This document shows, in pieces, positions 6,851-31,479 of a DNA stretch of 64,000 nucleotides. The position numbers and the translations under genes were made by a program. The notes beneath the pieces were generated by a model that saw only the letters and a list, made by a program, of their open reading frames with translations, was not told the DNA's origin and searched no databases. The DNA comes from Candidatus Saccharimonadia bacterium (lineage in GTDB: Bacteria; Patescibacteriota; Saccharimonadia; UBA4664), in the NCBI GenBank assembly GCA_035544015.1, contig DATKIP010000076.1:299-64298 (forward strand), written 5' to 3'. Position 1 is the stretch's first letter, and the number at the start of each line of letters is the position of its first letter.

Positions 6851-6852
6851 GT

Positions 6853-7044: not shown

Positions 7045-7324
7045 ACGGGTCGCTCTTGCCCAGATCGCCCACCGGCACGCCACCCTCCACCACATCCAGG
7101 CTCTTCACCGCGTCAATCGTCGCCTTGTCGAACACCACCTTCGTCGCCGGATTGGCCGTAGCCACCGGAGTAGGGTCGGGGCCAACATTGAGGGCCGCAT
7201 TCAGCACGTATGCGGTATACGCAAACACCCCCACCAGCGCCAGCCCAAAGATGTACGGCTGCAGCCGCCGCACGATCGGCAGCCACTTCTTAAAATCCAA
7301 ATCGAGCTTAAGGTTCATGTTCAT
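7037..7324 (-). CDS. small single-pass membrane protein at the distal end of the pilus operon (PilP-like?)
   Basis: N-terminal TM (FGLALVGVFAYTAYVL) followed by a periplasmic tail. It directly follows pilO. Confidence 0.45.
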   Translation of the reverse strand: MNMNLKLDLDFKKWLPIVRRLQPYIFGLALVGVFAYTAYVLNAALNVGPDPTPVATANPATKVVFDKATIDAVKSLDVVEGGVPVGDLGKSDPFK

Positions 7325-7875
7325 GGCTTTATATAGGCATTAAGTGCAATCGCGTACACGATCGGTTTTGATTTATCAGGCCGGCTAATGGCGAGGTTGG
7401 TGATGTTGGTGAAACGGTTGAGTTTCTCAACCTTGGCCGTAAAATTCTGCAATTGATCGTACGACCCCGACAGCTGAAAACTAATCGGCAGCGCCAGCAC
7501 CGTCCCGCTCTTCACCGTCTGCGAAGTCCCGGTGGGCAGACCCACGGGGCTGGGCATATTCACACTCGCAATCGCCAGCCCCTGCTGGGCCGCGATGTTT
7601 TGCAGCTGAGCCAAAATCTCGGTTTGCTTCTTGTCGCGCGGCAAGGCTTCGTCAAGCAGCGACAAAATCGGCACAATGTCGCGGTCGTATTGGCGTTTAA
7701 GCCGGCTGAGCGTCTCGATCTGCCGATCGGCGTCGGCCTGCGCCGCCAATCCCACCGAAAGTTGCTGCGAGCTAGCCGTCACTTGCTGCAAAGCAAAGTA
7801 GTAGCCCACCCCGGCCAGCAGCACCGTCCCGCCAAAAACCCCGAGCAATACCAAGAAAAACTGCTTCGGTTTCAT
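7321..7875 (-). CDS. pilO: type IV pilus assembly protein PilO
   Basis: N-terminal TM, coiled coil, and a PilO-like C-terminal domain. It sits after pilN with overlapping stop/start. Confidence 0.75.
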   Translation of the reverse strand: MKPKQFFLVLLGVFGGTVLLAGVGYYFALQQVTASSQQLSVGLAAQADADRQIETLSRLKRQYDRDIVPILSLLDEALPRDKKQTEILAQLQNIAAQQGLAIASVNMPSPVGLPTGTSQTVKSGTVLALPISFQLSGSYDQLQNFTAKVEKLNRFTNITNLAISRPDKSKPIVYAIALNAYIKP

Positions 7876-8417
7876 TTGGCTTGCCCCGGCTTAAACGCCA
7901 CCACCACACTGGTCTGATAACTGCCGCTGGTGTTGGAGCTGATCGTTTCCAGGTCGGCGTTGGCGATCCGCGGCGAGGTGATGAGCGCGTTGCGAAACGC
8001 CAGCGCGCCGGCGTAGCTGGCCGCCGTCACCGTGATCCGCACCGCCGTCTTGTCGTCGCCCGTGAGCGTCATGCTGTCGATCGACACCCCCTGCGGCACC
8101 ACCTTGGCGATATCCGCCACCACCGACGAAAACCGCGTCTGGCTCACCTGCACGTACTTGATCGCCGCCAGCCGGTCGCTCGCGTCCTTGGCCTTGGGCG
8201 TGAAGGTCTTGTTGAGAGCCGCAATCGTGGCCTGCTTTTCGGCCACATCATTCGCCACGGCGGTAGTTTGCTGGTGGAGCAGGTAGAGGCTGCCCGCAAA
8301 GATTACCCCGAGCACCACCGCCACCGCCACCGATGTCCGCACATACACAATTGCAATCCGGTTGAGCTTGGCGTAGCGAATCTGCTCTTTTTGATCGGGC
8401 GGCAAGAGGTTGATCAC
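7872..8417 (-). CDS. pilN: type IV pilus assembly protein PilN
   Basis: Characteristic MINLLP start, a single TM and a periplasmic domain. It overlaps pilM. Confidence 0.8.
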   Translation of the reverse strand: MINLLPPDQKEQIRYAKLNRIAIVYVRTSVAVAVVLGVIFAGSLYLLHQQTTAVANDVAEKQATIAALNKTFTPKAKDASDRLAAIKYVQVSQTRFSSVVADIAKVVPQGVSIDSMTLTGDDKTAVRITVTAASYAGALAFRNALITSPRIANADLETISSNTSGSYQTSVVVAFKPGQAK

Positions 8418-9469
8418 AGCTTGCCCTCCAGCCGCGCCAGCCCGATCGCCGAGGTGTACATGGGCGCGTCATACTTCGATACCGGCTCCACATGCTTCAT
8501 ATCGAGGCCCATCCACGGATCGGCCAGCACCACCGGCACGTTAATTTCCGCCGCCATATACTCCAAAAATCCCGGCATGCTGGCGCTGCCGCCGCCCACG
8601 ATGATCGCCTCAATCTTGCGCTTCTGAGCACCCCGGTCCTGGTAAAACTTCATCACCCGCCGCATCTCGTCGCACATCTTCTTCAGCGGCACGCCCAGAC
8701 TGGCCATCACTTTGGGCTGCAGTCCCGACGGCCCCAGCCCAAATTTATATTTAATTTCATTGGCCTGCTCGCGGCCCACTCCCAGGTCCTTCACGAGCTG
8801 CTGGGTGAGGCTGTCGCCCCCCAGTGGCACCGTATCGGTCAGCCGGATCACCTTGTCGTGCACCGTCAGGTCGATCGAGGTCGAGCCGATGTCGGCCACC
8901 AGCGTCGGCTTGCCCAGCTGCGTCGAGGCCACGATCGCGCGCGTCGTGGCTGCCATACTCGAATCTACCAGCGCCACCTCCAGCCCCAGCAGATCAAACA
9001 ATTTGATGTAGCTATCCACGATCGCCCGCGGCGCCGCTACCATCAGCACCTCATTGCGCTCGGCGCCCGCTTCGATCGTTTCGTAGTCGATGTAGAGGTC
9101 GGGCAGCGGCACCGGAATGTACTGCTCCGCCTCCAACCGCACCGCCTGCCCCAAATCCGCCGGGTTCATCGGCGGCAGCTCTAGCACGCGTGTAAACACT
9201 TTGGCCACCGGCAAGCTAGCCGCCACCCGCGTGGCCGTGATTTGGCCGTAGGTGGTTTTCTTGAGCAACGGCTTGATCGCTTTCACGATCTCCTGGGGGT
9301 CCACCACAATGCCTTCCACGATCGCGTCATCGGGGAATTGCGCGTAGCCGTAGCCCATCACCTCCATCGTTTTGCCGCTGGGCCGCAGCTGAATCATCTT
9401 GGCCGTGCGCGTTCCCAGATCAAACCCGAAAATCGGCCGTTCCCGGTACACCAAGGGCACCCGCATCAT
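8414..9469 (-). CDS. pilM: type IV pilus assembly ATPase-like protein PilM (actin/FtsA fold)
   Basis: FGFDLGTRTAKMIQL (phosphate-1 of the actin fold) plus downstream DIGSTSIDLTV and GGGS motifs. Confidence 0.85.
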   Translation of the reverse strand: MMRVPLVYRERPIFGFDLGTRTAKMIQLRPSGKTMEVMGYGYAQFPDDAIVEGIVVDPQEIVKAIKPLLKKTTYGQITATRVAASLPVAKVFTRVLELPPMNPADLGQAVRLEAEQYIPVPLPDLYIDYETIEAGAERNEVLMVAAPRAIVDSYIKLFDLLGLEVALVDSSMAATTRAIVASTQLGKPTLVADIGSTSIDLTVHDKVIRLTDTVPLGGDSLTQQLVKDLGVGREQANEIKYKFGLGPSGLQPKVMASLGVPLKKMCDEMRRVMKFYQDRGAQKRKIEAIIVGGGSASMPGFLEYMAAEINVPVVLADPWMGLDMKHVEPVSKYDAPMYTSAIGLARLEGKL

Positions 9470-9516
9470 ACTGATATAACCATAGCCATTATGCGTATTG
9501 TATCACTTTGCCCTTG

Positions 9517-10923
9517 TCATGGGTTATACAGCTGCTCGCGCCAATTTAAAATCGAATAATTCCCCGTGGTTGGATATTGCGGCGGAGGAGCATAAATAAG
9601 GTTCGAGTCGAAATTTGTCGCTGTGGTGCCCCAGCCCGAAACCAGCGTCCCCGACCCATTCACATACCCCCACGTCCAAAACAAGAACGTCGCAATCGCA
9701 CCATAAAACGTCAACGTACCCGTTTTAGCCGCGGCGTTCCCGGTAGAATAGACATGCCCGTTTTGAGCCAGCAAAGCCGCGTCGATCTCCACCGCGTTCG
9801 GAGCATAATCCGACACGATCACGTCGGCTTGGGCGATCAATCCAATTGCCGCCGAGCCGTCTTTGGCCGCATACGTCAGATTGCTCGTGATGTTGACGCT
9901 GCGCGCAGTCCCACCCAGCGTGGCTGCCACAATCGTGATGCGGCCCGGAAAACTCGTGCCGCTCACCCACACGTTATCATCCACGAACAACACGCCGTTG
10001 GCCGGCGCCGCGAGGTCGCTGAAGCAGTTCGACGTGGTGATACCCGTGGCGCGCGACCCGCTAAAGGTCTCGTTGGTGACTTTGCAGCGGTCGTATTTGC
10101 CGTTGCTTTTGAGCGTAATCGAATAACCCTTCGAACCACTGCCGGCCGTGTACGTGCCGCCGCTCTGAGCGCTCGCCTTCATGGTGGTGAGGTTGGCCGA
10201 CACTTGGGCAAAGTTCACCACACTCACCGGGTCCGTGCAATTCGGCGGCGTAGCGTTAAAGGGCGCTACCTCCACCGGCTTCCATTGGCTGCTCGGGCCG
10301 CCGGAGCCCCACACCCCGCAGTGGAAGGTGGTCCCATTGCCGCCGAATTGCGAGGTCGGTTTGTAGGTTTTTTGGCCGGCCGAGACAGTCCCGTTATTGA
10401 CCCCATCCATGTGCACGCCCACATTCGACATCACCGGCCCATTTGACGCTTCCGAGGAGCCAAACCACACCTCCGATTGCGACAGCAAGCCATAATTAGC
10501 AAACGACGGCTGCCCCAGCTGAGCCAAAATCGTGCGCGTCCCCGAAAAGTGCGGCACCTGCCCGATCGACTTCACGGTCGTAATCGTCGAACCCCCGCTC
10601 GGCGGCGTGATGTAGAGCGTGTAGCTGCCGAGCAGGTTGCCATCGGTGTCGTAGGAGTTGTGCACGTACGGCCCATACGGCGCCGTACTCGGCGTGGTGC
10701 CGCCATCCTTGTAATCCGTCGGGTTGTGCGCCAAATGCCACAAGTAGTAATTAACCCCCGCCTCCGCCACGTTCATTGCCTCGGCGCTACGGCCCTCGTA
10801 CTGATTAAACCGCGCGTTGCTGATCAACAGTTGCGCGCCCACCATCCCCAAAAACGACAGCAAAAAGGCCATAATCAAAACCGTGAGCATGATGAACCCA
10901 GATTGAGTGGTGCGCTGATTCAT
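9517..10923 (-). CDS. PilX-like minor pilin / pilus-associated protein with a large C-terminal domain (468 aa)
   Basis: The N-terminal hydrophobic segment plus ARFNQYEGRSAEAMNVAEAGVNYYLW resembles the PilX_N domain. A long Gly/Thr/Ser-rich extracellular part follows. Confidence 0.6.
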   Translation of the reverse strand: MNQRTTQSGFIMLTVLIMAFLLSFLGMVGAQLLISNARFNQYEGRSAEAMNVAEAGVNYYLWHLAHNPTDYKDGGTTPSTAPYGPYVHNSYDTDGNLLGSYTLYITPPSGGSTITTVKSIGQVPHFSGTRTILAQLGQPSFANYGLLSQSEVWFGSSEASNGPVMSNVGVHMDGVNNGTVSAGQKTYKPTSQFGGNGTTFHCGVWGSGGPSSQWKPVEVAPFNATPPNCTDPVSVVNFAQVSANLTTMKASAQSGGTYTAGSGSKGYSITLKSNGKYDRCKVTNETFSGSRATGITTSNCFSDLAAPANGVLFVDDNVWVSGTSFPGRITIVAATLGGTARSVNITSNLTYAAKDGSAAIGLIAQADVIVSDYAPNAVEIDAALLAQNGHVYSTGNAAAKTGTLTFYGAIATFLFWTWGYVNGSGTLVSGWGTTATNFDSNLIYAPPPQYPTTGNYSILNWREQLYNP

Positions 10924-11513
10924 AGATTCGTCTTAAAATTACGCAATGTTACACGCGTCGTTAGCGACACCGGTACACTCAGCTGCTTGGCTTTGGGGTT
11001 GGCCGCCACATAAATCCCGATCGCCCGCACCTGGCTCGTCGCAAAGCCCGGGGAAAGCACGTTGCCGGCATCATCGTAATACGTAAACATGGTATTGGAC
11101 CCCATCGCCAAATCCACGCGCGTAATCGTCGGCTTCTCGGGATTGTTGTTGTAGGTGGCCGGGATCGCCGCGCTATCCGGGTCGGTGACGCCGATCACCA
11201 GGTTGTTGCCGCTGATGTAGTAGCGAATCTTCTTGATCACCGTGTCGGCCGGCGAGAAATAGCCGTAAACCGTAACCGTATTGGGCTGAGCACTGAGCAC
11301 CCCGGTCGTCCCCCGGAGCACCTTGCCGATCCGCGCCGACAGCGTCGAGAGCTCGGTCGAGGTGTCCGATTGAGCCTGCAAAAACGCATACGACGTCAGC
11401 CCCTTGTAGCTAAACATCACGAGCGGCACCGCGATCATCGCCGTCAGCGTCATCACCACGAGCAATTCAATGAGGCTGTACCCCCCCTGATCGAGCCGTT
11501 TACGGAGTAACAT
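10920..11513 (-). CDS. prepilin-type N-terminal cleavage/methylation domain minor pilin
   Basis: GYSLIELLVVMTLTAMIAV is a class III signal with Glu at +5. Confidence 0.8.
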   Translation of the reverse strand: MLLRKRLDQGGYSLIELLVVMTLTAMIAVPLVMFSYKGLTSYAFLQAQSDTSTELSTLSARIGKVLRGTTGVLSAQPNTVTVYGYFSPADTVIKKIRYYISGNNLVIGVTDPDSAAIPATYNNNPEKPTITRVDLAMGSNTMFTYYDDAGNVLSPGFATSQVRAIGIYVAANPKAKQLSVPVSLTTRVTLRNFKTNL

Positions 11514-12879
11514 TCAAGCCTCCTGTCTGTGTCGCCGTATTCCCGCTGTTCGTCACCGCAAGGTCCCATGCACCGGTTGCCGCTCCCGTGAGACTCACAT
11601 TGCAAGTGATGATCGTGTTGCCCACGCTCGAAGCGCAGCCGGTAGCCGCAATGTCCGATTGACCGGCCTTCTTGAGCTTTACGCTCGTGCCGGTCGGAAC
11701 GTTGGCCCCAGTAATTTTGAGCGAAAAGGTGCTCGTGCCGGTCTGTTGCGTCAGCGGCGTCGCTTGGCTGATGCGCGGATACGAGCTGGAGGTGCTCACC
11801 ACCAGATTGGCCGTCGACGACGAATTCGCTCCCAGCGCCAGGGGCGCATAGGGCGACACCGTGACCACGTAATACCCCGTCGGAACCGCAAAATTATAAC
11901 CCGTCAGATCAAATTCCATCCCGCTGAGCGTGATATCGCCGGTCGCGTTGGTGGCCGTAGCCTGCGAATATTTGTACACTGTGGGGCTCTGCTTAATCGG
12001 TTTGGTGCCCGAAGTCGTGACGCTCAGAGCATTCATCGGATTGCCGCTCGTATCCGTCACATGCACGTAAAAGGTCGAGAGCCGATCGATCGTCAGCGTA
12101 ATCGGATTAATTTGTTGTGCCAAAACATTCATATTGAGCTTCACCGCCGTCTGCGCGCCCGGCGGCTCCGGAATCGTACCGTCCGTCGAGTAACCCGGCA
12201 GGCTGGCCGTAATTTGATAATTGTTGTTCGAGTCCGGCGGCAGTTTCGGAATCACCACTACGCCCAAATTATCGGTCGTGGTAGCAATATTCACATCCGG
12301 GTTGGGCACCGTATTCACGATCGTCACGTTCGCGTTCGGCACCGGCTGGCCGTTCGCATCGAGCACCGTGATGCTCAAAATACCCGTGTTCGACGACGTC
12401 TCGGCCGCTTTGCCCGCAATATCCGTCGACAGCGTCGAAACCACCTTGCCGCTCGACACCAGCTTCACCGTTATTTGCGCCTTTTTATAATCATACGGAT
12501 ACAAATCCTTGGGTTTGCCCGCCGCCGGCCCGCTCCCGCACGGGCACGAAATAAACCCGTCATACGGATCGTCCACAAAATTGAGGTCGGTGTGGACGCT
12601 GAATTTAAAATTGCCCCGCGTCACCGTTTCGTTGTCGAGGATATTGCCCGGCGGATAAATCGTCCCGCTCTGCGTCGCCAATGAATCGTACGGTAGGTCA
12701 CGCAGCGTCTCCATTTTCTCATTGGCCAGCGCCACCCCGATAGCTCGCGACTTACCAAGCACAACCGTGTTGATATTCGAGATATACAGCTCGCCAATAG
12801 CCGCCACCATCAGCGCCATAATCACAGCCCCAAACACTACTTCGACCAGCGTAAACCCACCTTCGTTTGCGCGCTTCAT
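11500..12879 (-). CDS. large minor pilin (about 460 aa) with a prepilin N-terminus and beta-rich, probably Ig-like, extracellular domains
   Basis: The start was reassigned to MKRANEGGFTLVEVVFGAVIMALM (prepilin signal, Glu at +5). The track ORF extends further upstream through a non-coding-looking Arg/Pro/Thr-rich stretch. Confidence 0.7.
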   Translation of the reverse strand: MKRANEGGFTLVEVVFGAVIMALMVAAIGELYISNINTVVLGKSRAIGVALANEKMETLRDLPYDSLATQSGTIYPPGNILDNETVTRGNFKFSVHTDLNFVDDPYDGFISCPCGSGPAAGKPKDLYPYDYKKAQITVKLVSSGKVVSTLSTDIAGKAAETSSNTGILSITVLDANGQPVPNANVTIVNTVPNPDVNIATTTDNLGVVVIPKLPPDSNNNYQITASLPGYSTDGTIPEPPGAQTAVKLNMNVLAQQINPITLTIDRLSTFYVHVTDTSGNPMNALSVTTSGTKPIKQSPTVYKYSQATATNATGDITLSGMEFDLTGYNFAVPTGYYVVTVSPYAPLALGANSSSTANLVVSTSSSYPRISQATPLTQQTGTSTFSLKITGANVPTGTSVKLKKAGQSDIAATGCASSVGNTIITCNVSLTGAATGAWDLAVTNSGNTATQTGGLNVTP

Positions 12880-12982
12880 GTCCCCATTATAACGCTTATG
12901 CTGAAGAAAGCACCGCGGCCTTCGCTCGGGCAATACCAAAACCGACCCCGTAGGGTCGGTCTCAGAAATTTGCGGCAGGGGA

Positions 12983-13447
12983 CTAGTTGCCGTTGACGAC
13001 TTCGAACTTCTTCGCACTCGCCGATCCGCAACTGCTATCGGTCGATACGCTGGCACCACTGTCCTGGTCATTCTCCAAGCAAGCCTTAAGCGTGTAGGTC
13101 GAGTCCGAGTTGGCCGGGGTGTAGGTGTAGACATACACACCAGTATTCTTCGGGTCGGTGGGCAACGTCTTAACGATGGGTGCGGTACCACTGCTCAATT
13201 CCGAAAGAACAGTGCCCGAGCCTACGGCTCCACTACTAGCGGGGTACACATTATTATTAACAAAATATTCTTCCAGACCTTTGCGCAAAGTCGTAATGTC
13301 GGTCTTGCGCTTCGTGTCGCGGGCCTTCTTGGGCGCGGACGTAATATTCGGGATGATCAACAACGCCAAGATGCCAATGATCACAATCACGATCAAAAGC
13401 TCGAGGAGGGTAAATCCGCCCTGTTTCTTTAATGATGCAATGGACAC
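12983..13447 (-). CDS. pilA: type IV major pilin (PilA-like)
   Basis: KKQGGFTLLELLIVIVIIGILA prepilin signal. The C-terminus has a Cys pair (disulfide D-region). An AGGAGGTG RBS lies upstream. Confidence 0.85.
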   Translation of the reverse strand: MSIASLKKQGGFTLLELLIVIVIIGILALLIIPNITSAPKKARDTKRKTDITTLRKGLEEYFVNNNVYPASSGAVGSGTVLSELSSGTAPIVKTLPTDPKNTGVYVYTYTPANSDSTYTLKACLENDQDSGASVSTDSSCGSASAKKFEVVNGN

Positions 13448-13504
13448 GAGTGCTCACCTCCTTAAAATTTGTGGACGAATAAAGTCTAGCTCTATTTAGC
13501 CCAA

Positions 13505-13533
13505 ATCATAAAGCGCTTAAGGTTTAATGTCAA
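13505..13533 (-). promoter_or_regulatory. sigma70-like promoter for pilA (TTGACA-17 bp-TATGAT on the minus strand)
   Basis: On the minus strand, TTGACAttaaaccttaagcgctttATGAT lies about 60 nt upstream of the pilA ATG, ahead of the AGGAGGTG RBS. Confidence 0.45.
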
Positions 13534-13540
13534 TGACACC

Positions 13541-13578
13541 CGCAAGGCCAAAGTCCCGCCCCGGCAAGTGCGCCGGAG
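13541..13578 (-). terminator. GC-rich hairpin downstream of the GH26 gene (possible attenuator/terminator between the pilBC-GH26 and pilA units)
   Basis: gtcccgccccggcaagtgcgccggagcgggac is a nested perfect inverted repeat followed by a short T tract on the minus strand. Confidence 0.35.
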
Positions 13579-13591
13579 CGGGACAGGCCTC

Positions 13592-14677
13592 CTAGGAGGC
13601 GAAGACGGACACGTACTGCCGGAAGGCAGCCCGCGAAGCGGTTGCGGTCGAGAGTGGGACCGGGTAGATGCGCCAGTCGTTCGGGTTGTCGGCGGTGGCC
13701 GGATGGTCGAAGTAGTTCACGAGGATCACGTTGTACGCCGGGGCCACGGTGCGCATCCACTCGCCCAGCTGCTGGTCCCACTGGGCCTTGCTGTGGCCGT
13801 TCTGGGCCGCACCCGAGGCCGGCTCGCTGCTGCCGGTCTCCCCGACGATGTACGGCTTGTCGAGCGGAGCTAGCGCCCGAATCGCCGTGATCGTGGCCTG
13901 CCGCACGTTGGTGGGCGTGCGCCAGGAGTACGGGTCGCTCGCGCCGTCCGACGTCGACCGGTTGTAGCCGTCGTCGCCGACGTACTCCGTATTGTCGTTG
14001 CCGGGATAGAAGTTGGCGAACGAGGTTTTGCCGTCCCGAAGAATATTCGGGCACCAGTAGAAGGACAGCCCCGGGAACGCCGTGCGCATGGTGTTGCGAA
14101 TGCGCTGCCACGCCGGCCCGAATTGCGCGGGCGTGTTGTGGTTCGGATTATCGCCCCCGAATGTCCAGGGGTAGAAGGTCCCGTTGGCCTCGTGCAGCGG
14201 CCGCACGATGATCTCGTGGCCGGGGTGGGCTGCTACCCATGTCTTCATCTGGCCGGCGATCCGACTCATGTTCGCGTCTTGGGCGCCGGCGCCGATGTGG
14301 GCCAGCGTGTCCCACGTCTCGATCGTGACGATGTGGTGGTTGATCCACCGCGCCGCCTCGCCGTTGAGCAGAGCCGTGTCGAGGTCCTGGCTCTGACTCA
14401 TGTAGCTGGTGTTCCAGTCGAGACGTGCCACACCCATGGCACTCAGGGTGGCGTCGAGCGAGCCGAGGTTGTCGGCGTCGGTGCCGAGCACGGCCGGCAG
14501 ATACGCCGCCGCCGTGGCCGCCGTGGCCGCCGTGGCCGCCGTGGCGGCAGCCGGAACCGCTGTGGCTGCCAGCACCGCCGGAACGATACCCGCCGCCGCT
14601 AGCGTCGCGGCGACGAGCAGCCGGACAAACCGTCCTTGCCGTAATCCTTGCATGGTATTCCCCCGTCTCGGTGCCAA
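13592..14677 (-). CDS. secreted glycoside hydrolase, GH26 (mannanase)-like
   Basis: Signal peptide, then an (AAT)n tract. RPLHEANGTFYPW resembles the GH26 acid/base region (..HE.N). IVGETG resembles the nucleophile region. GC is about 68%. The likely start is the Met near 14653. Confidence 0.6.
   Translation of the reverse strand: MAPRRGNTMQGLRQGRFVRLLVAATLAAAGIVPAVLAATAVPAAATAATAATAATAAAYLPAVLGTDADNLGSLDATLSAMGVARLDWNTSYMSQSQDLDTALLNGEAARWINHHIVTIETWDTLAHIGAGAQDANMSRIAGQMKTWVAAHPGHEIIVRPLHEANGTFYPWTFGGDNPNHNTPAQFGPAWQRIRNTMRTAFPGLSFYWCPNILRDGKTSFANFYPGNDNTEYVGDDGYNRSTSDGASDPYSWRTPTNVRQATITAIRALAPLDKPYIVGETGSSEPASGAAQNGHSKAQWDQQLGEWMRTVAPAYNVILVNYFDHPATADNPNDWRIYPVPLSTATASRAAFRQYVSVFAS
14510..14548. 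repeat. tandem 9-bp repeat (ccgtggccg x about 4) encoding (Ala-Ala-Thr)n in the GH26 signal region
   Basis: A direct tandem repeat is visible in the sequence. It corresponds to AATAATAATAAT in the protein. Confidence 0.8.
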
Positions 14678-14784
14678 CAGGCACCGTGGTGTGCCTGTTG
14701 GTAGGGCTAAGGGTCAGGAGCCCAGGAGACCAACAGGTAGGTCTTTATACCACAATATATTTCCTTGTACAAGGCAAACGGGGC

Positions 14785-16011
14785 TTAGATCGAATTCCCA
14801 ATGCTCGAAATCGGTCCAAATACACTAATCACAATGAATCCCACCATACCCCCCAGCACAATGATCAAAATCGGCTCAATGATCGAGGTAATGCCCGACA
14901 CCACCGTATCCACCTCTTTTTCATAGAATTCCGCCAGCTTCAGCAAAATCGAATCCAGCTGCCCCGTCTCCTCGCCCACGCTCAGCATCTGGCCTACGAT
15001 CGCCGGGAAGTTTTTCGAAGCCCGGATGTGCTCGCTCATCGGCCGGCCGTTTTTCACCTTTTGTGCCACTTCCGCCAGCTCGTCTTGGTACACACTATTG
15101 CCCAGCGCCGTCTTGGTCGCATTAATCGCGTCGAGCACCGAAATCCCCGAGGCCATCAGCGAGCCAAAGGTGCGCGAAAACCGCGCAATGTTGACCTTCA
15201 CGATGATCGGCCCAAAAATCGGCGCCTTCAAAATCAATCGGTCAATCGTGCGCTTGCCCCCCGGCGTCTTGCGCCAGCGAATAAACAGCACCACTGCCGC
15301 CACAAACCCGCCAATCACAAAATACCAGTCGTTTACCAAAAAATGCGAAATCGCCAGCATGATTTTGGTGTAAATCGGCAGCTGTGCCCCCGCGTCTTCA
15401 AAAATGCTCGAAAGCTTCGGCACGATCACCGTCATCAAAAAGAAAAACGCGCTCACCGTGGCCGTCGTAATGACCGCCGGATAAATCATGGCGCTGCGCA
15501 CCTTGCTCACCACCTCGGCGTCTTTTTCTTGCTGCGTCGCCAGCCGGTCGAGCACCTGATCCAAAATACCGCCGGTCTCCCCGGCCTTCACCATGTTCAC
15601 GTAGATCGGATTGAACACCTCCGGGTGTACCGCCAGTGCGCTGGCCAGCGTCGAGCCCCCTTCCACCTGTTTCGACACCTCCGCCACCGTTTTTTTAAGT
15701 TTTTGGCTCTCCGTTTGTTCGCGCAAAATGTTCAGCGATTGCACGATCGGCACGCCGGCGTTAATCATGGTGGCAAACTGGCGGCTGAAGACCACTTTGT
15801 CTTGGAGGCGCACCCCTTTGCCAAGCGATAATCCGCCGGTCAGGAGGCCTTTGAGCCCGGGCCCTTTTTCGCCCGCAGCTTCTTTGACAAGAATCGGCGT
15901 CAGGCCCTTTTCCACCAGGCTGGCCGTAGCTGCTGGGCGGTCCGCCGCAAAGACCGAGCCCTTCGTGATGGCGCCGCTTTTATCCCGCGCGCTGTAGCTA
16001 AATTGCCCCAT
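14785..16011 (-). CDS. pilC: type IV pilus assembly protein PilC (GspF family platform protein)
   Basis: Two GspF repeats and three TM segments. It sits next to the pilB ATPase. Confidence 0.88.
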   Translation of the reverse strand: MGQFSYSARDKSGAITKGSVFAADRPAATASLVEKGLTPILVKEAAGEKGPGLKGLLTGGLSLGKGVRLQDKVVFSRQFATMINAGVPIVQSLNILREQTESQKLKKTVAEVSKQVEGGSTLASALAVHPEVFNPIYVNMVKAGETGGILDQVLDRLATQQEKDAEVVSKVRSAMIYPAVITTATVSAFFFLMTVIVPKLSSIFEDAGAQLPIYTKIMLAISHFLVNDWYFVIGGFVAAVVLFIRWRKTPGGKRTIDRLILKAPIFGPIIVKVNIARFSRTFGSLMASGISVLDAINATKTALGNSVYQDELAEVAQKVKNGRPMSEHIRASKNFPAIVGQMLSVGEETGQLDSILLKLAEFYEKEVDTVVSGITSIIEPILIIVLGGMVGFIVISVFGPISSIGNSI

Positions 16012-18026
16012 TATTCGCGCGTTACCCGCAGGATTTCTTCGATCGTCGTTTTGCCCTGCAGCGCCTTTACAAAGCCGTCTTGCTGCATCGTGAGCATGCC
16101 GGCGCGCACCGCCGCCATCTGGATGTCGTCCGAAGTAGCGCGGCCCACGATCATCTTCGACACCGTATCGTCTACCTCGAGCACCTCATAGATGCCCATG
16201 CGCCCCTGATACGCTGCGCCGCCGCATGCCTCGCAGCCGGGGCCAGGCTTAAACAACATAAACTGCCCGGCCTTCAAATCTTTGGGGCTAGCGGCAGGCT
16301 GGGCGGGCTTGGCCGGTTCCGTTGCGGCCGTCGTCGCCACCGCTACCGGCAGCGCCGCCGGCTTGGGCTTGCCCGCATCGGCGGCGCTGCGGTTGATGAT
16401 GTTTGGATCGGCGGCGATTTTATCCAAAATGCTTTTGGCCGTGTCGATGTCGTGCTCGGGGTTGATCACCCGGCCCTTTTTATGCTCTGTCGGCACCATC
16501 ACCTGCGGCACAGGCGCCAGCGGCGCCGCATCGGGGGCAGCCGCGGCTACCAACGGCTTCTCGGGCGCGCCCTTCAGGTCGTTGAAGCGCTTCAGCGCTG
16601 CGTCAAGCGCAAAATCGCGCTTGACGTTCGTCAGCTCCACGCCCTCGGGAATGTACCCGATACGGCACACCTGGCACAGCCGCCGCACCAGCCGCTGCCC
16701 GATCACCGTGTTGACCGTGCTCGCGATCAAAAACGCCTCCAGCCCCATGTCGAGCAAGCGGGGGAGCGTGGTAGCCGCATTATTCGTGTGCAGTGTCGAG
16801 AGCACCACATGCCCCGTCAGCGCCGCCTGCACCGCCAGGTCGGCCGTCTCGCCGTCGCGAATCTCACCCACCATGATGATGTTCGGGTCCTGCCGCAGCA
16901 ACGCGCGCAGTCCCGCCGCAAACGTCATGCCCGTCTTCGGATTCACCTGCGTCTGGTTTACCCCCTGCACCCGGTACTCCACCGGGTCTTCCACCGTGGA
17001 AATATTCACCCCCGGCGTATTGAGCAGGCTCAGTATGGAATACAGCGTGGTCGATTTACCCGATCCCGTCGGCCCCGTCACGAGCGTCATGCCGTGCGGT
17101 TTGTGCAGATTGCGTACGATCGCCTCCAGCGCGTGGCCGGTAAAGCCCAGCTCCTCGAGCGTCAGCGCCCGCGCGCTCTCGTCCAAGATACGCATCACCA
17201 CCTTTTCGCCGTCCATGATCGGCAGCGTGCTCACCCGCAACGCCACCTGCTTGCTGCCCATCGCAAACTTAAACCGCCCGTCTTGCGGCACCCGGTGCTC
17301 ATCTATTTTCAAATTCGCCAAAATCTTAATGCGGCTCACCACCGCGGCCAAAATCGGCTTCGGTAGCGTCATCGTCTCGCGCAGCACCCCATCCACCCGG
17401 TAGCGCACCTGCACAATGTTCTCGCGCGGCTCCAGATGAATATCCGAGGCGCGGCTCTTAATGGCGTACTCCAAAATCACGTTCACCGTCTTGGCGATCG
17501 GCGCGTCCTCAGCCAGGTCCTTGGCCGAAATTTTTTCCTCCGAAGCGCTCGCGTCCGCCGAAGAATCCTTGATAGCCTTGGTAATCTCGTTCGAAATGTT
17601 GCCTTTGTACTGATCGATCGCTGCCAAAATATCCGCGGCCGTCGCGATGTAGGTCTTGAGCTTGCCACCCACCTGCTTCGTGATGAAGTCTGCCGCCTGA
17701 AAGTCTTCCGGGTCGGCCATCGCCAGCTGCAGCGCATCCTCTTCGGCGCCAAACAGCACCACCTGGTACTTGCGCGCAATCCGCTCCGGAATCTTCAGCA
17801 GCTGCTCTCGCGGAATCTTGATCTCCGATAGTTCCACAAACGGCACATCGATACTCTTGGCGTACAGCTTCACCAGGTCTTTATCGCTGATGAGCTTCTT
17901 TTTGAGCACCGCCGTCTGCAGCGATTCACTCCCTTCGCTCTTGGGCATCGCATCTTCAATCACCTCCGGCTTCACTAAACCAGAGTCGAGCAACAACTTT
18001 TTGAGCTCACCGTCAGATATGCGCAT
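16011..18026 (-). CDS. pilB: type IV pilus assembly ATPase PilB (GspE family)
   Basis: N-terminal GspII_E N domains, Walker A GPTGSGKSTT, Asp/His boxes, and a C-terminal tetracysteine (CQVC...CEAC) interrupted by an Ala/Pro-rich insertion of about 90 aa. Confidence 0.92.
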   Translation of the reverse strand: MRISDGELKKLLLDSGLVKPEVIEDAMPKSEGSESLQTAVLKKKLISDKDLVKLYAKSIDVPFVELSEIKIPREQLLKIPERIARKYQVVLFGAEEDALQLAMADPEDFQAADFITKQVGGKLKTYIATAADILAAIDQYKGNISNEITKAIKDSSADASASEEKISAKDLAEDAPIAKTVNVILEYAIKSRASDIHLEPRENIVQVRYRVDGVLRETMTLPKPILAAVVSRIKILANLKIDEHRVPQDGRFKFAMGSKQVALRVSTLPIMDGEKVVMRILDESARALTLEELGFTGHALEAIVRNLHKPHGMTLVTGPTGSGKSTTLYSILSLLNTPGVNISTVEDPVEYRVQGVNQTQVNPKTGMTFAAGLRALLRQDPNIIMVGEIRDGETADLAVQAALTGHVVLSTLHTNNAATTLPRLLDMGLEAFLIASTVNTVIGQRLVRRLCQVCRIGYIPEGVELTNVKRDFALDAALKRFNDLKGAPEKPLVAAAAPDAAPLAPVPQVMVPTEHKKGRVINPEHDIDTAKSILDKIAADPNIINRSAADAGKPKPAALPVAVATTAATEPAKPAQPAASPKDLKAGQFMLFKPGPGCEACGGAAYQGRMGIYEVLEVDDTVSKMIVGRATSDDIQMAAVRAGMLTMQQDGFVKALQGKTTIEEILRVTRE

Positions 18027-18153
18027 AATATACCCCTATTTTAGCATAACCGTAATAACGCAAGGCTCGTAAAAAGCCCGTGCTTGCTCTACGGCTTTTG
18101 TTCGCTTATTCTTCAGGAGGTTCTCAGGAGGGTGCACAACATAACTAAGGGGA

Positions 18154-19932
18154 GTGCTCACTATGCGGTTTCGGATTGCGGTTTGCGTTAGTGTCTTGGT
18201 TGGTTATTTATTCGCTCAAACGGGGCTCATATCCTCGGTCGCCGCAGCCTCGAGCAGCGGCATTGTTATTTCCGGGCTGCAGCAGGCCGGCAGCGCCAAG
18301 GCCACCGATGAATACGTCGAGCTCCTCAATACTTCCGGCAGCACCGTCTCGCTGTCTGGCTGGAAGCTCCAATACCGCGCCGCTTCCAGCGCCAATGGCA
18401 CCGACTGCACCAAAGGCTGGGCCACCAAAACCACTATCACCGATGGGATCATTCCGGCCGGCGCACACTTCCTGCTTGCTTCTAGCGGCTATCTCGCTGC
18501 CGACGCCGGCTTTGCCTCCGGTTTGGCGTCCGTTGGCACGGTGCGGATCGTAAATGACGCGCAGGTCACCGACGACGCAGTGGCGTGGGGCGCCGCTAGC
18601 TGCGGTACCGGGCAACCCGCCGCCGTGCCACCGGCCGGCTCCAGCCTCGAGCGCCACGCCGGCACCGAGGGCGCCCATGGTGACAACGCACTCGATTTCT
18701 TTGTGCAGACCCAGCCGTCGCCTCGCGCTTTGTCGGCAGCCGCGGCGCCGCCTGTCGCTACACCACCCGCCGCCGGGTCGTCCGGCCCAGCCGCGCTCGA
18801 GCTCAGCGAACTGCTCGTCGACCCGGTCGCACCGAGCACCGACAGCCGTGACGAATTCATCGAGCTTCACAATGGCGGCGACGTGCCGATCGAGCTGGGC
18901 GGCTACGTCATCCGGACCGGCACCCACAATTACCCGCTACCGGCTGGCACCCTCGAAGCCGACGGCTACTACGTCGTCACCTCCGGCGGCTCCACCATCT
19001 CACTTTCAAATTCCGGGGGCGTGGCCAACCTCATTGACCCCTCCGGGACCGTCATCGATACCGCCGCCACCTGGGAAACCGCCGTGCCTGGCGCCAGCTG
19101 GGCCTTTGTGGACGACGCGTGGCGCTGGACGCTCACGCCCACGCCCGGCGCCGCCAACGAGTACACGCCCGTACCCGGCACCGCCGGCGCCGAAGGCTCG
19201 GCCGATTACGCCGTCGTGGAGCTCAATGAGCTTCTACCCGACCCCGTAGCGCCCCTCACCGATGCCTCCGACGAATTCATTGAGATTTACAACCCCGGTG
19301 ATACTGAGGTCGATCTTACCGGATACGTTCTCAAGACCGGCCACGATCTTACGAGCAAATATGTCATAAAAGACGTCACGGTCGGCCCCGGAGGCTACAT
19401 AGCCCTCAAATCTGCCGACACCAAGCTCTCACTCGCCAATACCGGCAGCTCCGTGGCACTCTACACCCCCGACGGCGCCCAGCTGGGCGCCACAGCGACG
19501 TACCCCAAGACCACCACCGGCGACGCCTGGGCCCGCTTCGACGACGGCTGGCATTGGACCGGCCAGCCCACGCCCGGCGCCGCCAACCTCCTCGCCGCAC
19601 CCGGTACCGCCGCAGCCGCCGCCAAAACCGCGGCCGCCAAAGCTACCAAGCCCAAAGCCGCCGCGGCCGCCAAGCCCAAAGCCGCCGCCAAACCCAAAGC
19701 CACCAAATCGGTCACGACCCCGCTCACCAATGCCGCCAGCACGCCGGCCGGCCGCTGGTTGCTATTTGTCTTGGCCGGGCTCACGATTGCCTATATCATG
19801 TATGAATTCCGCTATGACCTACGAAACTACTACCACAAACTCCGAGGGTACCCAATCGGTCGCCCGGCGCCTGTCCCGGCTCTTGTCGGGCGGGGAGGTG
19901 GTGGAGTTGGCAAGCGATCTGGGCGGGGGTAA
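18154..19932 (+). CDS. cell-surface protein with three lamin-tail (LTD) domains, a Lys/Ala-rich tract and a C-terminal TM anchor
   Basis: Signal peptide, then three repeats of the LTD signature (DEYVELLNTSGSTVSLSGWKL; DEFIELHNGGDVPIELGGYVIRTG; DEFIEIYNPGDTEVDLTGYVLKTG). An AAAKTAAAKATKPKAAAAAKPKAAAKPKATK tract follows, then a TM segment WLLFVLAGLTIAYIMY. Confidence 0.75.
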   Translation: MLTMRFRIAVCVSVLVGYLFAQTGLISSVAAASSSGIVISGLQQAGSAKATDEYVELLNTSGSTVSLSGWKLQYRAASSANGTDCTKGWATKTTITDGIIPAGAHFLLASSGYLAADAGFASGLASVGTVRIVNDAQVTDDAVAWGAASCGTGQPAAVPPAGSSLERHAGTEGAHGDNALDFFVQTQPSPRALSAAAAPPVATPPAAGSSGPAALELSELLVDPVAPSTDSRDEFIELHNGGDVPIELGGYVIRTGTHNYPLPAGTLEADGYYVVTSGGSTISLSNSGGVANLIDPSGTVIDTAATWETAVPGASWAFVDDAWRWTLTPTPGAANEYTPVPGTAGAEGSADYAVVELNELLPDPVAPLTDASDEFIEIYNPGDTEVDLTGYVLKTGHDLTSKYVIKDVTVGPGGYIALKSADTKLSLANTGSSVALYTPDGAQLGATATYPKTTTGDAWARFDDGWHWTGQPTPGAANLLAAPGTAAAAAKTAAAKATKPKAAAAAKPKAAAKPKATKSVTTPLTNAASTPAGRWLLFVLAGLTIAYIMYEFRYDLRNYYHKLRGYPIGRPAPVPALVGRGGGGVGKRSGRG

Positions 19933-20290
19933 AACTACCTTCGTGCAAGGCCTCGCCCGGGCCCTGGGCTACACCGGCGCCGTCACCAGTCCGACCTTTA
20001 CGCTAAGCAACATCTACGCGTTGCCGGACGGACGCGAAATACATCACTACGATCTCTACCGCCTAGGCGAAGCCGGCGTAGTGGGCGCCGAGCTCGGCGA
20101 AGACATCGGCGAGCCGACCATAATCACGGTCATCGAATGGGCCGGTGTCGCCGAGACTCGGCTTCCGGCCGACCATCTCACCATTAGGTTCGAAGTCACC
20201 AGCGACACCGGCCGCAAGCTGATATTCTCCGGCAGCGGCCCGCTCTCAGACAAAATCGTTCATCAACTCAGTCCGGAACCACCAGTATGA
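19814..20290 (+). CDS. tsaE: tRNA threonylcarbamoyladenosine biosynthesis ATPase TsaE
   Basis: GGEVVELASDLGGGKTTFVQG is a P-loop of the YjeE family. The start was chosen at MTYETTT. It overlaps the 3' end of the LTD ORF by about 119 nt in another frame. Confidence 0.8.
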   Translation: MTYETTTTNSEGTQSVARRLSRLLSGGEVVELASDLGGGKTTFVQGLARALGYTGAVTSPTFTLSNIYALPDGREIHHYDLYRLGEAGVVGAELGEDIGEPTIITVIEWAGVAETRLPADHLTIRFEVTSDTGRKLIFSGSGPLSDKIVHQLSPEPPV

Positions 20291-27558: not shown

Positions 27559-28071
27559 ATGCTCGGCTCGCACGGCCGCCACCGTCGCCCGCGTGGTCAC
27601 AAAGCCAACCCCGCGACTATCGCAATCCTCGCGCTCCTCGCCGCCGCCGTCCTCGGCGTCGCGAGTGGTGCCGGGTTCGCGAACACCCGCAACACGGCTC
27701 CCGGTCCGGGTATCGTCACGTCGGCTCCCCATCCCGGGCCGACCGAAACGGTCACCCAGGTGATGATGGTTCCGGAGCCGCCCAAGCCGGCGACAACCAC
27801 CAGCACCTACCGCCCCTTCCCGATCCGACCGCGGACCGCCGCCCCGTCCACGGCCGCACCGACTCCCGAGCCTTCCGCGACCGCCGCGCCGGCCGGCACC
27901 CCCAGTCCGCGCTCGCCGGCGACACCCCCGCTCGCTCCGCGGGCCAGCTCGCCGCCTATCGCGGCCAGCCCCACGGCCGAGCCCACGACACCCCCGGCGA
28001 CCCCAACCTCCGATCCGACCAGTGCCAGCCCTACGCCAACCGACCCCAGCGCACCGGTCGCAACCGGCTGA
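27559..28071 (+). CDS. Pro/Ala/Thr-rich low-complexity secreted or membrane-anchored protein (hypothetical)
   Basis: N-terminal hydrophobic segment followed by a PTPEPSATAAPAGTPSP-type low-complexity region. About 72% GC. The coding status is moderately uncertain. Confidence 0.4.
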   Translation: MLGSHGRHRRPRGHKANPATIAILALLAAAVLGVASGAGFANTRNTAPGPGIVTSAPHPGPTETVTQVMMVPEPPKPATTTSTYRPFPIRPRTAAPSTAAPTPEPSATAAPAGTPSPRSPATPPLAPRASSPPIAASPTAEPTTPPATPTSDPTSASPTPTDPSAPVATG

Positions 28072-28180
28072 GCAACAACCATCCGCCCCGCGAGCCGGCC
28101 CATCAGGGCCGGCTCCCCAACTCTGGATTTATCCCCCAAAATAAGGTAAAGTACCAAGGTCAAAAACCAAATACCGTCAT

Positions 28181-28258
28181 GGCGGGCGTAGCTCAGTTGG
28201 TTAGAGCGACTGGTTGTGGTCCAGTAGGTCGTGGGTTCAAGTCCCATCGCTCGCCCCA
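28181..28258 (+). tRNA. tRNA-His (anticodon GTG) with genomically encoded G-1
   Basis: An extra 5' G pairs with discriminator C73. Anticodon arm ACTGG-TTGTGGT-CCAGT, T loop TTCAAGT, CCA encoded. Confidence 0.85.
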
Positions 28259-28345
28259 TTTGCGCTTATGCTTATAACGGCTCTACAGAGTCGTTATTTT
28301 GTTATTACTGAACAAAACCAAAAAGTTGTTTCGAACATTTGGCAC

Positions 28346-28996
28346 TTAAAGCTCTGCCAAAGTATTTAAGCTCAGCTCTTCAAGCGAATCAACCACCAGG
28401 TCAGCTTCCGAGAACAATTTCCGGTCAATGTGTCGGTTCGGCACCGCAACCACTTTCATGCCCGCTCGTTTCGCCGCCGCTACCCCAGTCGGAGCATCTT
28501 CCAAAACTACGCACTCATCAGGCTTAACGCCAATTTCTTCTGCTGCTCGTAAGAAAATGTCTGGCTCTGGTTTGCCACGCTTCACCTGATCCCCGGAAAT
28601 AATTGCATCGAAATGATGACCCGCTTGAAGCTGCTCGATAACGATAATTATATGGTGACGCGCCGAGGATGAGGCAATTGCCTTCTTAATGCCTTGCTCC
28701 GATAAGTGGTCGAGCAAGGTCATAAGTCCTGGCATCGGCTGCATCCCCTTTGCTAATAGCTCCTCATAGACCTGTTGCTTTTTGTCGTACAAAACATCAA
28801 CGCTCTCGGAGAGCTGATGCACTTGTTTAAGACGTTCCCAATTATCCCTTGCCCCAACCCCCACTTCTTGCACGAGGCCACCATGAAGAACGGGAGTAAC
28901 CCCGTACTCCTGTAGCACCGCTTCAAACGACTTCGATTGAAGATGCTCGCTATCAATCATCAGGCCGTCCATGTCGAAAATAACTGCTTTTATCAT
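28346..28996 (-). CDS. HAD-IA family hydrolase (beta-phosphoglucomutase-like)
   Basis: MIKAVIFDMDGLMIDSE (motif I DxDG), later S/T and K motifs, and a GD motif near the C-terminus. The start was reassigned to the internal Met. The track ORF extends to 29137. Confidence 0.8.
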   Translation of the reverse strand: MIKAVIFDMDGLMIDSEHLQSKSFEAVLQEYGVTPVLHGGLVQEVGVGARDNWERLKQVHQLSESVDVLYDKKQQVYEELLAKGMQPMPGLMTLLDHLSEQGIKKAIASSSARHHIIIVIEQLQAGHHFDAIISGDQVKRGKPEPDIFLRAAEEIGVKPDECVVLEDAPTGVAAAKRAGMKVVAVPNRHIDRKLFSEADLVVDSLEELSLNTLAEL

Positions 28997-29044
28997 GCGC
29001 TCAATAATATCACCTCGAAACCACTTCTGAGCTATAATCCGATC

Positions 29045-29563
29045 ATGCCAACTGATCGAATCACCATTGTGAACGAAGCCGATAGCGTCATCGGCTCCGA
29101 AGACAGGAGCATTGCGCGCGCCCAGGGACTTCGGCATCGTATTGTGCGGGTCTTTTTGGTGAATTCAGAAGGTAAAGTGTTGCTCCATCGACGGTCAGAA
29201 AAGCTCAAGGATAATCCTGGAAAATGGGATCAGTCAGTCGGTGGTCATGTGGATGAAGGCGAAGACTACATCACGGCTGCCCGTCGAGAGACGCAGGAAG
29301 AGCTGGGAATTGCAGTAGAAAAATTTGAAGAAATCGGGAAATTCTATATCGAGCGCGAAGCTCCGGGCGGCTTCGTCAGAAGGTTTCAGGCCGTATTCAT
29401 CGCCAGAGGAGACGGCCCGGTCAAACTTGACGAGAGTGAAATTGCCGAGATTCGCTGGTTTGATATAGCGGAAGCAGCGGAGTTCTACTCGCAAAAACCC
29501 GACGCATTCACAAAGAATTTTGCTAGAGCCTTTGAGCTGCTCCAGAAGGCATTAGCGACCTGA
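29045..29563 (+). CDS. NUDIX hydrolase (second paralogue)
   Basis: Nudix box GGHVDEGEDYITAARRETQEELGI. The start was chosen at MPTDRITIV. The track ORF starts at a TTG at 28937. Confidence 0.8.
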   Translation: MPTDRITIVNEADSVIGSEDRSIARAQGLRHRIVRVFLVNSEGKVLLHRRSEKLKDNPGKWDQSVGGHVDEGEDYITAARRETQEELGIAVEKFEEIGKFYIEREAPGGFVRRFQAVFIARGDGPVKLDESEIAEIRWFDIAEAAEFYSQKPDAFTKNFARAFELLQKALAT

Positions 29564-29625
29564 ACTTAATATCATTAACCATCGCGCAAACCGCACCACA
29601 ACATTCTGTTCGAAACTTGAACTTA
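29563..29625. repeat. direct repeat copy 1 (about 60 bp) flanking the AlbA_2-ATPase cassette
   Basis: tgaacttaatatcattaaccatcgcgcaaaccgcaccacaacattctgttcgaaacttgaac. It recurs at 31361..31425 with roughly 85-90% identity. Confidence 0.8.
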
Positions 29626-29726
29626 CAAAGGGCCACTCGAAATAAAAATCAGCGCAGGCAAAACCCCAGTCGGCGTGACATTTGAGATTGCTTCGGCCAG
29701 TATTTAGCCACCAATGGAGGTCAGCT

Positions 29727-29800
29727 ATATCGTTAAATATCGTAAAAAAGGCGCTCTATTTTTGAGGTTAAGCGCAGCGAATCGTTAAATATCGTAAAAT
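29727..29800. repeat. two copies of a roughly 19-bp motif (atcgttaaatatcgtaaaa) about 54 bp apart, each with an internal ATCGT-N4-ATCGT sub-repeat
   Basis: Read directly in the 3' flank of the AlbA_2 gene. Confidence 0.7.
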
Positions 29801-29852
29801 GCTTAAGCTGGCATCTACAGATAAGAAATCACTATTGGTAAACAAAAACAAC

Positions 29853-31286: not shown

Positions 31287-31360
31287 ATTTCCTCGGAATA
31301 AGTCCTTATAATATAACAGCTCATCTGGGATAGCGCCTGAATTTAAGCAGCCAGCACCGA

Positions 31361-31425: not shown

Positions 31426-31449
31426 CTAGCTCGCCCCATTGCAATTGTC

Positions 31450-31479
31450 TTGACGACCAAATTTATCATCTGATATTAT
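31450..31479 (+). promoter_or_regulatory. strong sigma70-like promoter (TTGACG-18-TATTAT)
   Basis: Near-consensus hexamers. No protein-coding ORF follows within 170 nt. Confidence 0.5.

Follow-up and report, generated by a model that had tools for sequence, protein, structure and literature searches.

The window analysed here is a 64,000-nucleotide stretch of contig DATKIP010000076.1 from a Candidatus Saccharimonadia bacterium, and the gene under study lies in it between the divergent pilus gene pilB and the downstream gene tsaE. It encodes a protein with three lamin tail domains (LTDs), which can be read, with moderate confidence, as a type-I membrane-anchored envelope or contact protein belonging to a family conserved across Saccharimonadia. 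The positive charge of this protein belongs to a membrane-proximal stalk rather than to the LTDs, and tsaE, not pilB, is the invariant partner of its gene. A previous interpretation made from the DNA letters and their translations (below, the sequence-only reading) had proposed a pilus-linked DNA receptor at the cell surface, a role that now appears weakly supported.

In the favoured reading, Sec export and cleavage of the signal peptide would leave three acidic Ig-like LTD domains displayed outside the cell as heads mounted on a disordered stalk of approximately 50 residues, rich in lysine and free of acidic residues. The stalk would rise directly from a single transmembrane (TM) helix, and this helix would run on into a conserved cytoplasmic motif (YE[FY]RxD...) and then into a basic tail. 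Such a stalk may serve as a wall-spanning tether that threads the peptidoglycan and adheres by charge to anionic polymers of the cell's own envelope or to lipid head groups, with the acidic heads placed at the surface for envelope organisation or for cell-to-cell or host contact, and with the cytoplasmic motif docking a partner at the inner membrane face. The gene itself would have a promoter of its own and form a transcribed block with the housekeeping genes tsaE, tsaB and rny, outside the pilus regulon.

The open reading frame (ORF) 18154..19932 (+) was confirmed and gives 592 aa if read from the in-frame GTG at 18154. However, orthologue N-termini begin with MR[LF]RI..., the MRFR of the window protein aligns there, and a Shine-Dalgarno sequence, AAGGGGAG, is located at 18147..18154, 8 nt before an ATG at 18163. 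This ATG is therefore the likely start; the protein then has 589 aa, and 136 bp, not the 127 bp supposed before, separate the gene from pilB.

The signal peptide proposed by the sequence-only reading consists of the n-region MRFR and a hydrophobic core, with an AxA sequence just ahead of the first LTD; orthologues keep all of these. The three proposed LTD repeats were likewise recovered: PF00932 matched in three stretches with E=1.8e-41 and 141.4 bits against a gathering cut-off of 34.3 bits. No Pfam family besides LTD was found in the protein, NCBIfam added only a sub-threshold ExeM match to one LTD, and a sequence search of the PDB returned no relative. In the AlphaFold2 (AF2) model, built from an alignment of 31 homologues, the repeats fold as three beta-sandwiches with a predicted local distance difference test (pLDDT) score of ~85–95; disorder is predicted for the linkers 193–209 and 343–347, the stretch 492–526 and the tail, and a single continuous helix spans residues 528–560. 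When compared with the PDB by Foldseek, single LTDs matched the Ig fold of lamins A/C and B1 (1ifr, 6rpr_B, 6ghd, 3umn) with a probability of 1.0, TM-scores of 0.59–0.70 (0.64–0.70 for lamin A/C) and root-mean-square deviations of 2.7–3.9 over ~119 columns; beyond lamin, only tandem Ig-like arrays were retrieved (fibronectin FN3 arrays, invasin InvD and transglutaminase C-terminal barrels).

The charge of the protein is distributed very unevenly. The LTD ectodomain has an isoelectric point (pI) of 4.2, the whole exposed portion carries a net charge of about −22, and the ectodomain is acidic in 119 of the 119 homologues examined (median net charge −25, maximum pI 5.04). With net charges of −6, −14 and −10, respectively, the LTDs would not be plausible DNA binders. 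The earlier association of these domains with DNA handling is weakened both by their acidity in all homologues and by the Shewanella nuclease ExeM, the one bacterial case put to the test, in which removal of the LTD leaves extracellular DNA degradation nearly intact in vivo and whose authors regard the role of LTDs as unresolved, possibly that of envelope targeting (PMC6085458).

The Lys/Ala-rich tract described by the sequence-only reading, AAAKATKPKAAAAAKPKAAAKPKATK, is present, and the segment to which it belongs, residues 477–528, contains nine K/R and no D/E residues and is predicted to be disordered. Its core (AAKTAAAKATKPKAAAAAKPKAAAKPKATK) is a low-complexity tract of the H1/HupB kind, with nine Lys in 30 residues and no acidic residue. 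Its place is not that of an H1/HupB-type tail, as the topology predicted for the protein puts it on the extracytoplasmic side, between the exported ectodomain and the sole TM helix. The tract is unique among the ORFs of the window, and in the ~1.3 Mb of related loci, comprising all loci that were fetched, all but three of the 32 Lys-rich tracts lie on LTD proteins with the membrane anchor described below. Among 120 homologues, 118 allowed a linker to be marked off from the last LTD to the TM helix, usually 47–82 aa long and with hardly any acidic residue. Its composition shifts from Lys/Ala in high-GC relatives to Lys/Thr/Ser in those of lower GC, and its net charge lies between +3 and +17 in ~114 of the 118. 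The variability of the tract concerns its sequence and length, which drift, and not its net positive charge, which is kept. The drift in length can be ascribed to the coding DNA, which consists of imperfect 18/24-nt tandem repeats at 19633..19701. At the same time, because the charge split is a property of the whole family, the positive charge of the stalk appears to be selected and not accidental.

These data also bear on the simplest alternative, in which the tract would be a flexible low-complexity linker without any binding function, its composition arising from repeat slippage and mutational bias. The variable sequence and length, the slippage-prone repeats, the predicted disorder and the existence of four homologues with neutral or acidic linkers would all agree with such an inert spacer. 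Nevertheless, this explanation is disfavoured and considered unlikely: a net charge of +3 to +17 with nearly no acidic residues recurs in ~96% of homologues, in high-GC and lower-GC lineages alike, the protein's other inter-domain linkers carry no charge and are rich in Pro, Ala and Gly, and no second tract of this kind occurs among the window ORFs.

The C-terminal TM anchor was supported by both hydropathy and the AF2 model, which place a hydrophobic helix at residues 529–546, and the end of this helix together with the next 15 residues is the best-conserved part of the LTD protein. Y547, E548 and R550 are invariant in alignments A1 and A2, Y544 and D552 occur in at least 90% of the sequences, and the combination of the TM helix with a YE[FY]R motif was found in 118 of 120 homologues. 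In a regular-expression scan of the related loci, the TM + YE[FYW]R module was restricted to LTD proteins. The helix is followed by a basic tail of 43 residues (547–589, net charge +7) that was absent from the earlier description. A paralogous subfamily located in a different genomic context keeps the anchor motif as WEWR, and the conservation of the motif can thus be attributed to a constraint at the protein level and not to a side effect of the overlapping tsaE gene. A sorting signal for sortase, exosortase or rhombosortase was also considered and rejected, since the conserved motif lies on the cytoplasmic side, no LPXTG/LAXTG is present and the tail has 43 residues; the sequence ahead of the helix reads ...PLTNAASTPAGRW... 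in the window and PL[LV]AG[ST]T in orthologues, and never LAxTG.

Gene order was compared in 80 loci from species-representative genomes and six additional loci around database homologues, with neighbours mapped by tblastn. In most of the Saccharimonadia loci among L001–L041, and in L081–L086, the LTD gene is located immediately upstream of tsaE-tsaB-rny-ymdB, which it always adjoins or overlaps. In the window, tsaE starts at ATG 19814 and shares 119 nt with the LTD gene in a different frame (19814..19932). Overlaps of ~50–120 nt between the two genes recur in the relatives L001, L003, L005, L081 and L083–L086, and a promoter-like site is present at 19771..19799, just upstream of the tsaE start.

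The divergent position of pilB was confirmed (T2SSE, E=5.7e-131, plus MshEN), and homologues of the LTD gene are often found 0–6.5 kb from pilB, but direct adjacency turned out to be lineage-specific. Only within the window's own high-GC clade (L001, L005, L084, L086) is pilB directly divergent from the LTD gene. Even within this clade the two genes can be set apart, in L085 by a PadR-like gene and in L083 by an acetyltransferase gene and two Y1 transposase genes of the IS200/IS605 type (6132..7885). L083 is the locus of P0001, the closest relative for which a long contig is available, and it has kept the LTD promoter block. In most other Saccharimonadia, pilC-pilB diverge from a series containing recA, recX and a PRC-barrel gene that leads to LTD-tsaE, so that pilB is 2.7–6.5 kb off, and in L012 and L013 there is no pilB inside 10 kb of the LTD gene. 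In the window, recA, recX, a PRC-barrel gene, a second pilB and pilT were searched for and none was found; in its clade, recA/recX are gone from this site, and pilB has come to lie directly beside the LTD gene as a result. Moreover, the order ruvB, PH-domain gene, LTD gene in L010, L013 and L017 and in the Parcubacteria-like loci L051, L062 and L070 points to an LTD gene that was already in place when the pilus cluster and recAX were inserted next to it.

The 136-bp region between the two genes had been taken for a shared control region co-regulating the LTD gene with the pilus. It contains instead two separately conserved back-to-back promoters. That of the LTD gene is predicted to be sigma-70-like and belongs to a block, TGCTTGCATTTCGGTTTTTGTTC..TA...T, common to L001, L083, L084 and L085 (alignment A3), and it survives the transposase (L083) and PadR-like (L085) insertions between the LTD gene and pilB. 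The pilB promoter is represented by a putative extended −10 box, TGCTAAAAT, which is conserved in L001, L005 and L083–L086 and is not accompanied by a Shine-Dalgarno sequence; given the mere 11 nt between this box and the ATG, the pilB mRNA is predicted to be leaderless or near-leaderless. This arrangement suggests no common operator for pilB and the LTD gene, although the two may still be co-regulated. An Rfam search of the pilB–LTD intergenic region gave only a sub-threshold FourU match, inside pilB. A terminator-like hairpin at 18078..18094 was dismissed, as it overlaps the −35 box and spacer of the conserved LTD promoter.

The paralogous subfamily lies co-directionally in the order comEC-yebC-LTD-ruvC-ruvA-ruvB (L054 9119..10954; also L043, L049, L058, L059, L063, L064, L067, L073 and L076). 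Its members are composed of a signal peptide, an LTD, CxNxxGxQ repeats, a second LTD, four C..Q[YE]RNPxTNRCR repeats, a TM helix and WEWR, the Cys-rich repeat region, with a net charge of 0 to +10, replacing the Lys-rich stalk. In Southlakia epibionticum, SEML1_0775 is the only LTD protein and was assigned by transposon sequencing (Tn-seq) to essential class II (growth on host), while comEC is dispensable for growth and required for transformation (Wang et al. 2023, PMC10633639). By position, SEML1_0775 corresponds to the comEC-yebC-linked paralogue, as judged from gene order, length and the Pfam coordinates in Table S2; its gene order thus marks it as a paralogue, and the Tn-seq result was not accepted as direct evidence for the window protein. 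The essentiality of the paralogue, together with the dispensability of comEC, points to an envelope or contact role of the wider family rather than to competence. Additionally, HIT genes and not an LTD gene are located upstream of tsaE in the naturally competent Southlakia (PMC10633639), and this Saccharibacterium, competent as it is, apparently lacks the tsaE-linked subfamily. In line with a stalk that spans an anionic wall zone, an LCP/TagU-type enzyme for joining wall glycopolymers to peptidoglycan is encoded in Saccharibacteria (Southlakia Table S1/S2). A literature search found no functional discussion of Saccharibacteria LTD proteins.

These comparisons allow the DNA-receptor question to be addressed in its strongest form, in which the stalk, situated between membrane and wall, would act as a ComEA-like tether that binds incoming double-stranded DNA (dsDNA) non-specifically and retains it for ComEC. 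An H1-like stalk with nine positive and no acidic residues, whose positive charge is maintained in ~114 of 118 homologues over a wide GC range and whose Lys-rich character is specific to the LTD-anchor family in the loci examined, would suit this function. So would the neighbourhood, with its pilus genes, recA/recX and ruvABC and with comEC beside the paralogue. ComEA is annotated in just 31% of genomes of the Candidate Phyla Radiation (CPR), for which an alternative DNA-binding mechanism has been suggested (PMC6744442), and none is listed in the Southlakia annotation tables (PMC10633639); as the sequence-only reading had stated, no ComEA-type helix-hairpin-helix protein was found among the subset of window ORFs scanned. 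On the other hand, the much larger LTD part is strongly acidic and leaves the exposed portion at about −22, the sole LTD protein of the competent Southlakia is of the other subfamily, this paralogue is needed for growth and comEC is not, the LTD of ExeM is dispensable for DNA degradation in vivo, and the LTD gene belongs to a housekeeping block under its own promoter. Furthermore, the adjacent pilus cluster matches one that is reported not to contribute to competence. In Nanosynbacter lyticus TM7x, type IV pilus (T4P) locus two (pilB2, pilC2, pilM2N2O2 and recAX, with no pilT) makes a thin pilus that is reported to serve host binding, not motility or competence (PMC12206443), and we infer that the window cluster corresponds to this locus by its content and, in relatives, by the adjacency of recAX. 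The DNA tether would therefore be a quite improbable function, and its more specific version, in which the Lys-rich stalk of the tsaE-linked family would replace ComEA as a non-specific polycationic ratchet passing dsDNA to ComEC, is a shade more doubtful still.

It is similarly doubtful that the LTD protein is an accessory factor of the neighbouring host-binding "T4P-2"-like pilus, as a surface partner or adhesion co-factor whose motif might contact PilM/N/O/C: the host binding mediated by T4P-2 in TM7x (PMC12206443), the inner-face partner implied by the conserved cytoplasmic motif and the position of pilB, directly divergent in the window, L001, L005, L084 and L086 and no more than 6.5 kb away in most other Saccharimonadia loci, would favour it, but elsewhere recA, recX, PRC-barrel, NUDIX and other genes intervene, L012 and L013 have no pilB inside 10 kb, the pilus cluster seems, from the ruvB-PH-LTD order in other CPR groups, to have arrived beside an existing LTD gene, and each of the two genes has an independent promoter that stays conserved when other genes are inserted between them.

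The architecture of the protein, its charge partition, its conservation pattern, the synteny of its gene and the promoter blocks are shown directly; its topology, surface role and cytoplasmic partner are proposed. Several points weigh against the envelope-protein reading itself. The proposed binding of the stalk to wall or lipid is deduced from its charge and position. To our knowledge, no bacterial LTD has a known ligand, and we know of no chemical demonstration of anionic wall polymers in the Saccharimonadia lineage. The linkers of P0018, P0076, P0084 and P0107 are neutral or acidic, so that the fold family can do without a cationic stalk. The conserved neighbourhood, rich in comEC, ruvABC, recA/recX and pilus genes, could reflect function and not frozen synteny. 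Finally, the Tn-seq evidence concerns the paralogue only and may result from a polar effect on the downstream ruvC or penicillin-binding protein gene.

Table 1 Features of the LTD gene, its product and its immediate neighbours (window coordinates)
Feature	Coordinates	Strand	Basis and remarks
LTD surface protein, coding sequence	18163..19932	+	589 aa; orthologue N-termini and Shine-Dalgarno sequence
Predicted signal peptide, residues 1–29 (MRFR, hydrophobic core, ...VAAA)	18163..18249	+	hydropathy; AF2 helix 2–22, then low-confidence stretch; putative cleavage
LTD1, residues 30–185	18250..18717	+	divergent copy; conserved Cys pair (DCTKGW ... CGTG); net charge −6
Disordered Pro/Ala linker ahead of LTD2	18718..18792	+	AF2 model
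LTD2, residues 211–333	18793..19161	+	net charge −14; Pfam, AF2
LTD3, residues 351–476	19213..19590	+	net charge −10; Pfam, AF2, Foldseek
Polycationic stalk, residues 477–528	19591..19746	+	9 K/R, 0 D/E; pLDDT <50 at 492–526
Lys/Ala core of stalk	19618..19707	+	within residues 477–528
TM helix, residues 529–546 (AGRWLLFVLAGLTIAYIM)	19747..19800	+	hydropathy; AF2 continuous helix 528–560
Conserved predicted cytoplasmic juxtamembrane motif YEFRYDLRNYYHKLR	19801..19845	+	homologue alignments
Disordered Arg/Gly-rich cytoplasmic tail	19846..19929	+	AF2, charge count
tsaE	19814..20290	+	conserved start MTYETTTT inside YEFRYD codons of LTD gene
Sigma-70-like promoter of LTD gene (TTGCTC, 17 nt, TATTCT)	18084..18112	+	alignment A3; putative function
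Extended −10 box of pilB (TGCTAAAAT), 11 nt before pilB ATG	18038..18046	−	alignment A4; putative function
pilB	16011..18026	−	T2SSE and MshEN; first gene of divergent type IV pilus operon
Type IV pilus operon	7321..18026	−	pilB, pilC, GH26-like gene, two or three pilin-like genes, 468-aa unknown, pilM, pilN, pilO

Some further features of the pilus operon (Table 1) were recorded. PilB carries a low-complexity, Ala/Pro/Lys-rich insertion of ~130 residues at about positions 470–600, with one Cys pair of the C-terminal zinc-binding motif on either side (CQVC ... CEAC). The Pfam T2SSE match falls into two stretches; PilB is 671 aa long in the window and 585 aa in L081. Between pilC and the pilin genes, a gene for a secreted GH26-like glycoside hydrolase is located at 13592..14677 (−) (Pfam E=1.7e-07; GC content at third codon positions, GC3, 0.87). 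The signal region of its product contains an (Ala-Thr)n repeat, and the gene is absent at the same position in L083, L085 and L086. The large pilin-like protein encoded at 11500..13191 (−) has its N-terminal methylation motif at residues 108–132 of the listed ORF, the true start being probably later. It also contains a CarboxypepD_reg / Big_1-like Ig domain and could act in this cluster as an adhesin or tip pilin.

In the wider surroundings of LTD genes, the order ruvB, PH-domain (bPH_2-like) gene and secreted LTD gene recurs across distant CPR lineages (L070 7875..13393; L062, L051, L065, L010, L013 and L017). Parcubacteria-like loci continue with yebC-ruvC after the LTD gene. That a surface-protein gene should be so deeply linked to Holliday-junction genes was unexpected. 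The place of the comEC-yebC-(LTD)-ruvC genes that relatives have upstream of ruvA is taken in the window by 21..1612, which holds a DDE transposase gene (21..845) and then an ORF (929..1612) with GC3 0.93 and no Pfam match. The region 28001..36000 has a GC content of 0.47–0.53 against ~0.60 elsewhere and may be horizontally acquired, and tRNA-like sequence is present near 24.7 kb and 28.2 kb, as judged from ORF translations.

Saccharimonadia and other CPR bacteria live attached to host cells, and a function is known for very few of the proteins on their surface. A class-wide LTD family thus offers a concrete target for genetics in cultivable strains. Its paralogous subfamily matches, by position, a gene that the one genome-wide screen available found to be needed for growth on the host. 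The label of a DNA receptor is attractive but weakly founded and should not be attached to the LTD family. If the stalk did bind DNA, this would help to explain DNA uptake by CPR bacteria that lack ComEA.

Compared with known systems, the protein shares single traits with several of them. The ExeM/Xds nucleases, which combine an LTD with an OB fold and an EEP nuclease, are also secreted or envelope-associated proteins with an N-terminal LTD. However, the window protein has no nuclease or OB domain, and its match to NF033680 reached 16.6 bits against a cut-off of 1300, over 22 residues. With ComEA it would have in common the membrane tether and a flexible linker between membrane and wall, and a non-specific binding of polyanions by the stalk is conceivable. 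At the same time, no helix-hairpin-helix (HHH_3 / ComEA) domain was found in it with Pfam or NCBIfam, its anchor is C-terminal whereas that of ComEA is N-terminal, and its ectodomain is mostly acidic.

The Lys/Ala/Pro tails of histone H1, of mycobacterial HupB and HBHA and of Pseudomonas AlgP bind DNA or sulphated glycans electrostatically. Tails of the H1, HupB and AlgP type are mostly cytoplasmic or nucleoid-associated, and that of HBHA is at the distal end of the protein, whereas the tract of the window protein is predicted to be extracytoplasmic and membrane-proximal, beneath three acidic domains.

The Saccharibacterial LTD surface protein SEML1_0775 and its subfamily share the signal peptide, LTDs, TM helix and aromatic-Glu-aromatic-Arg anchor with the window protein, but differ from it in being paralogues with two LTDs, Cys-rich repeats in place of the stalk, a WEWR anchor and another operon. 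As far as could be found, the design of acidic LTDs, cationic stalk and TM/YE[FY]R anchor, the split into tsaE-linked and comEC/yebC/ruvC-linked subfamilies and the CPR-wide ruvB-PH-LTD linkage have not been described before. The closest likeness is to database entries from Saccharimonadia/Saccharimonadales named "lamin tail domain-containing protein" (for example P0042, P0071, P0076, P0084 and P0088), a family without a described function to which the window protein belongs and whose best homologue is 62% identical to it. The entries share with it the signal peptide, two to five LTDs, the basic stalk, the TM helix, YE[FY]R and the position upstream of tsaE, and within this family the window protein represents a high-GC, three-LTD, Lys/Ala-rich clade with pilB directly adjacent.

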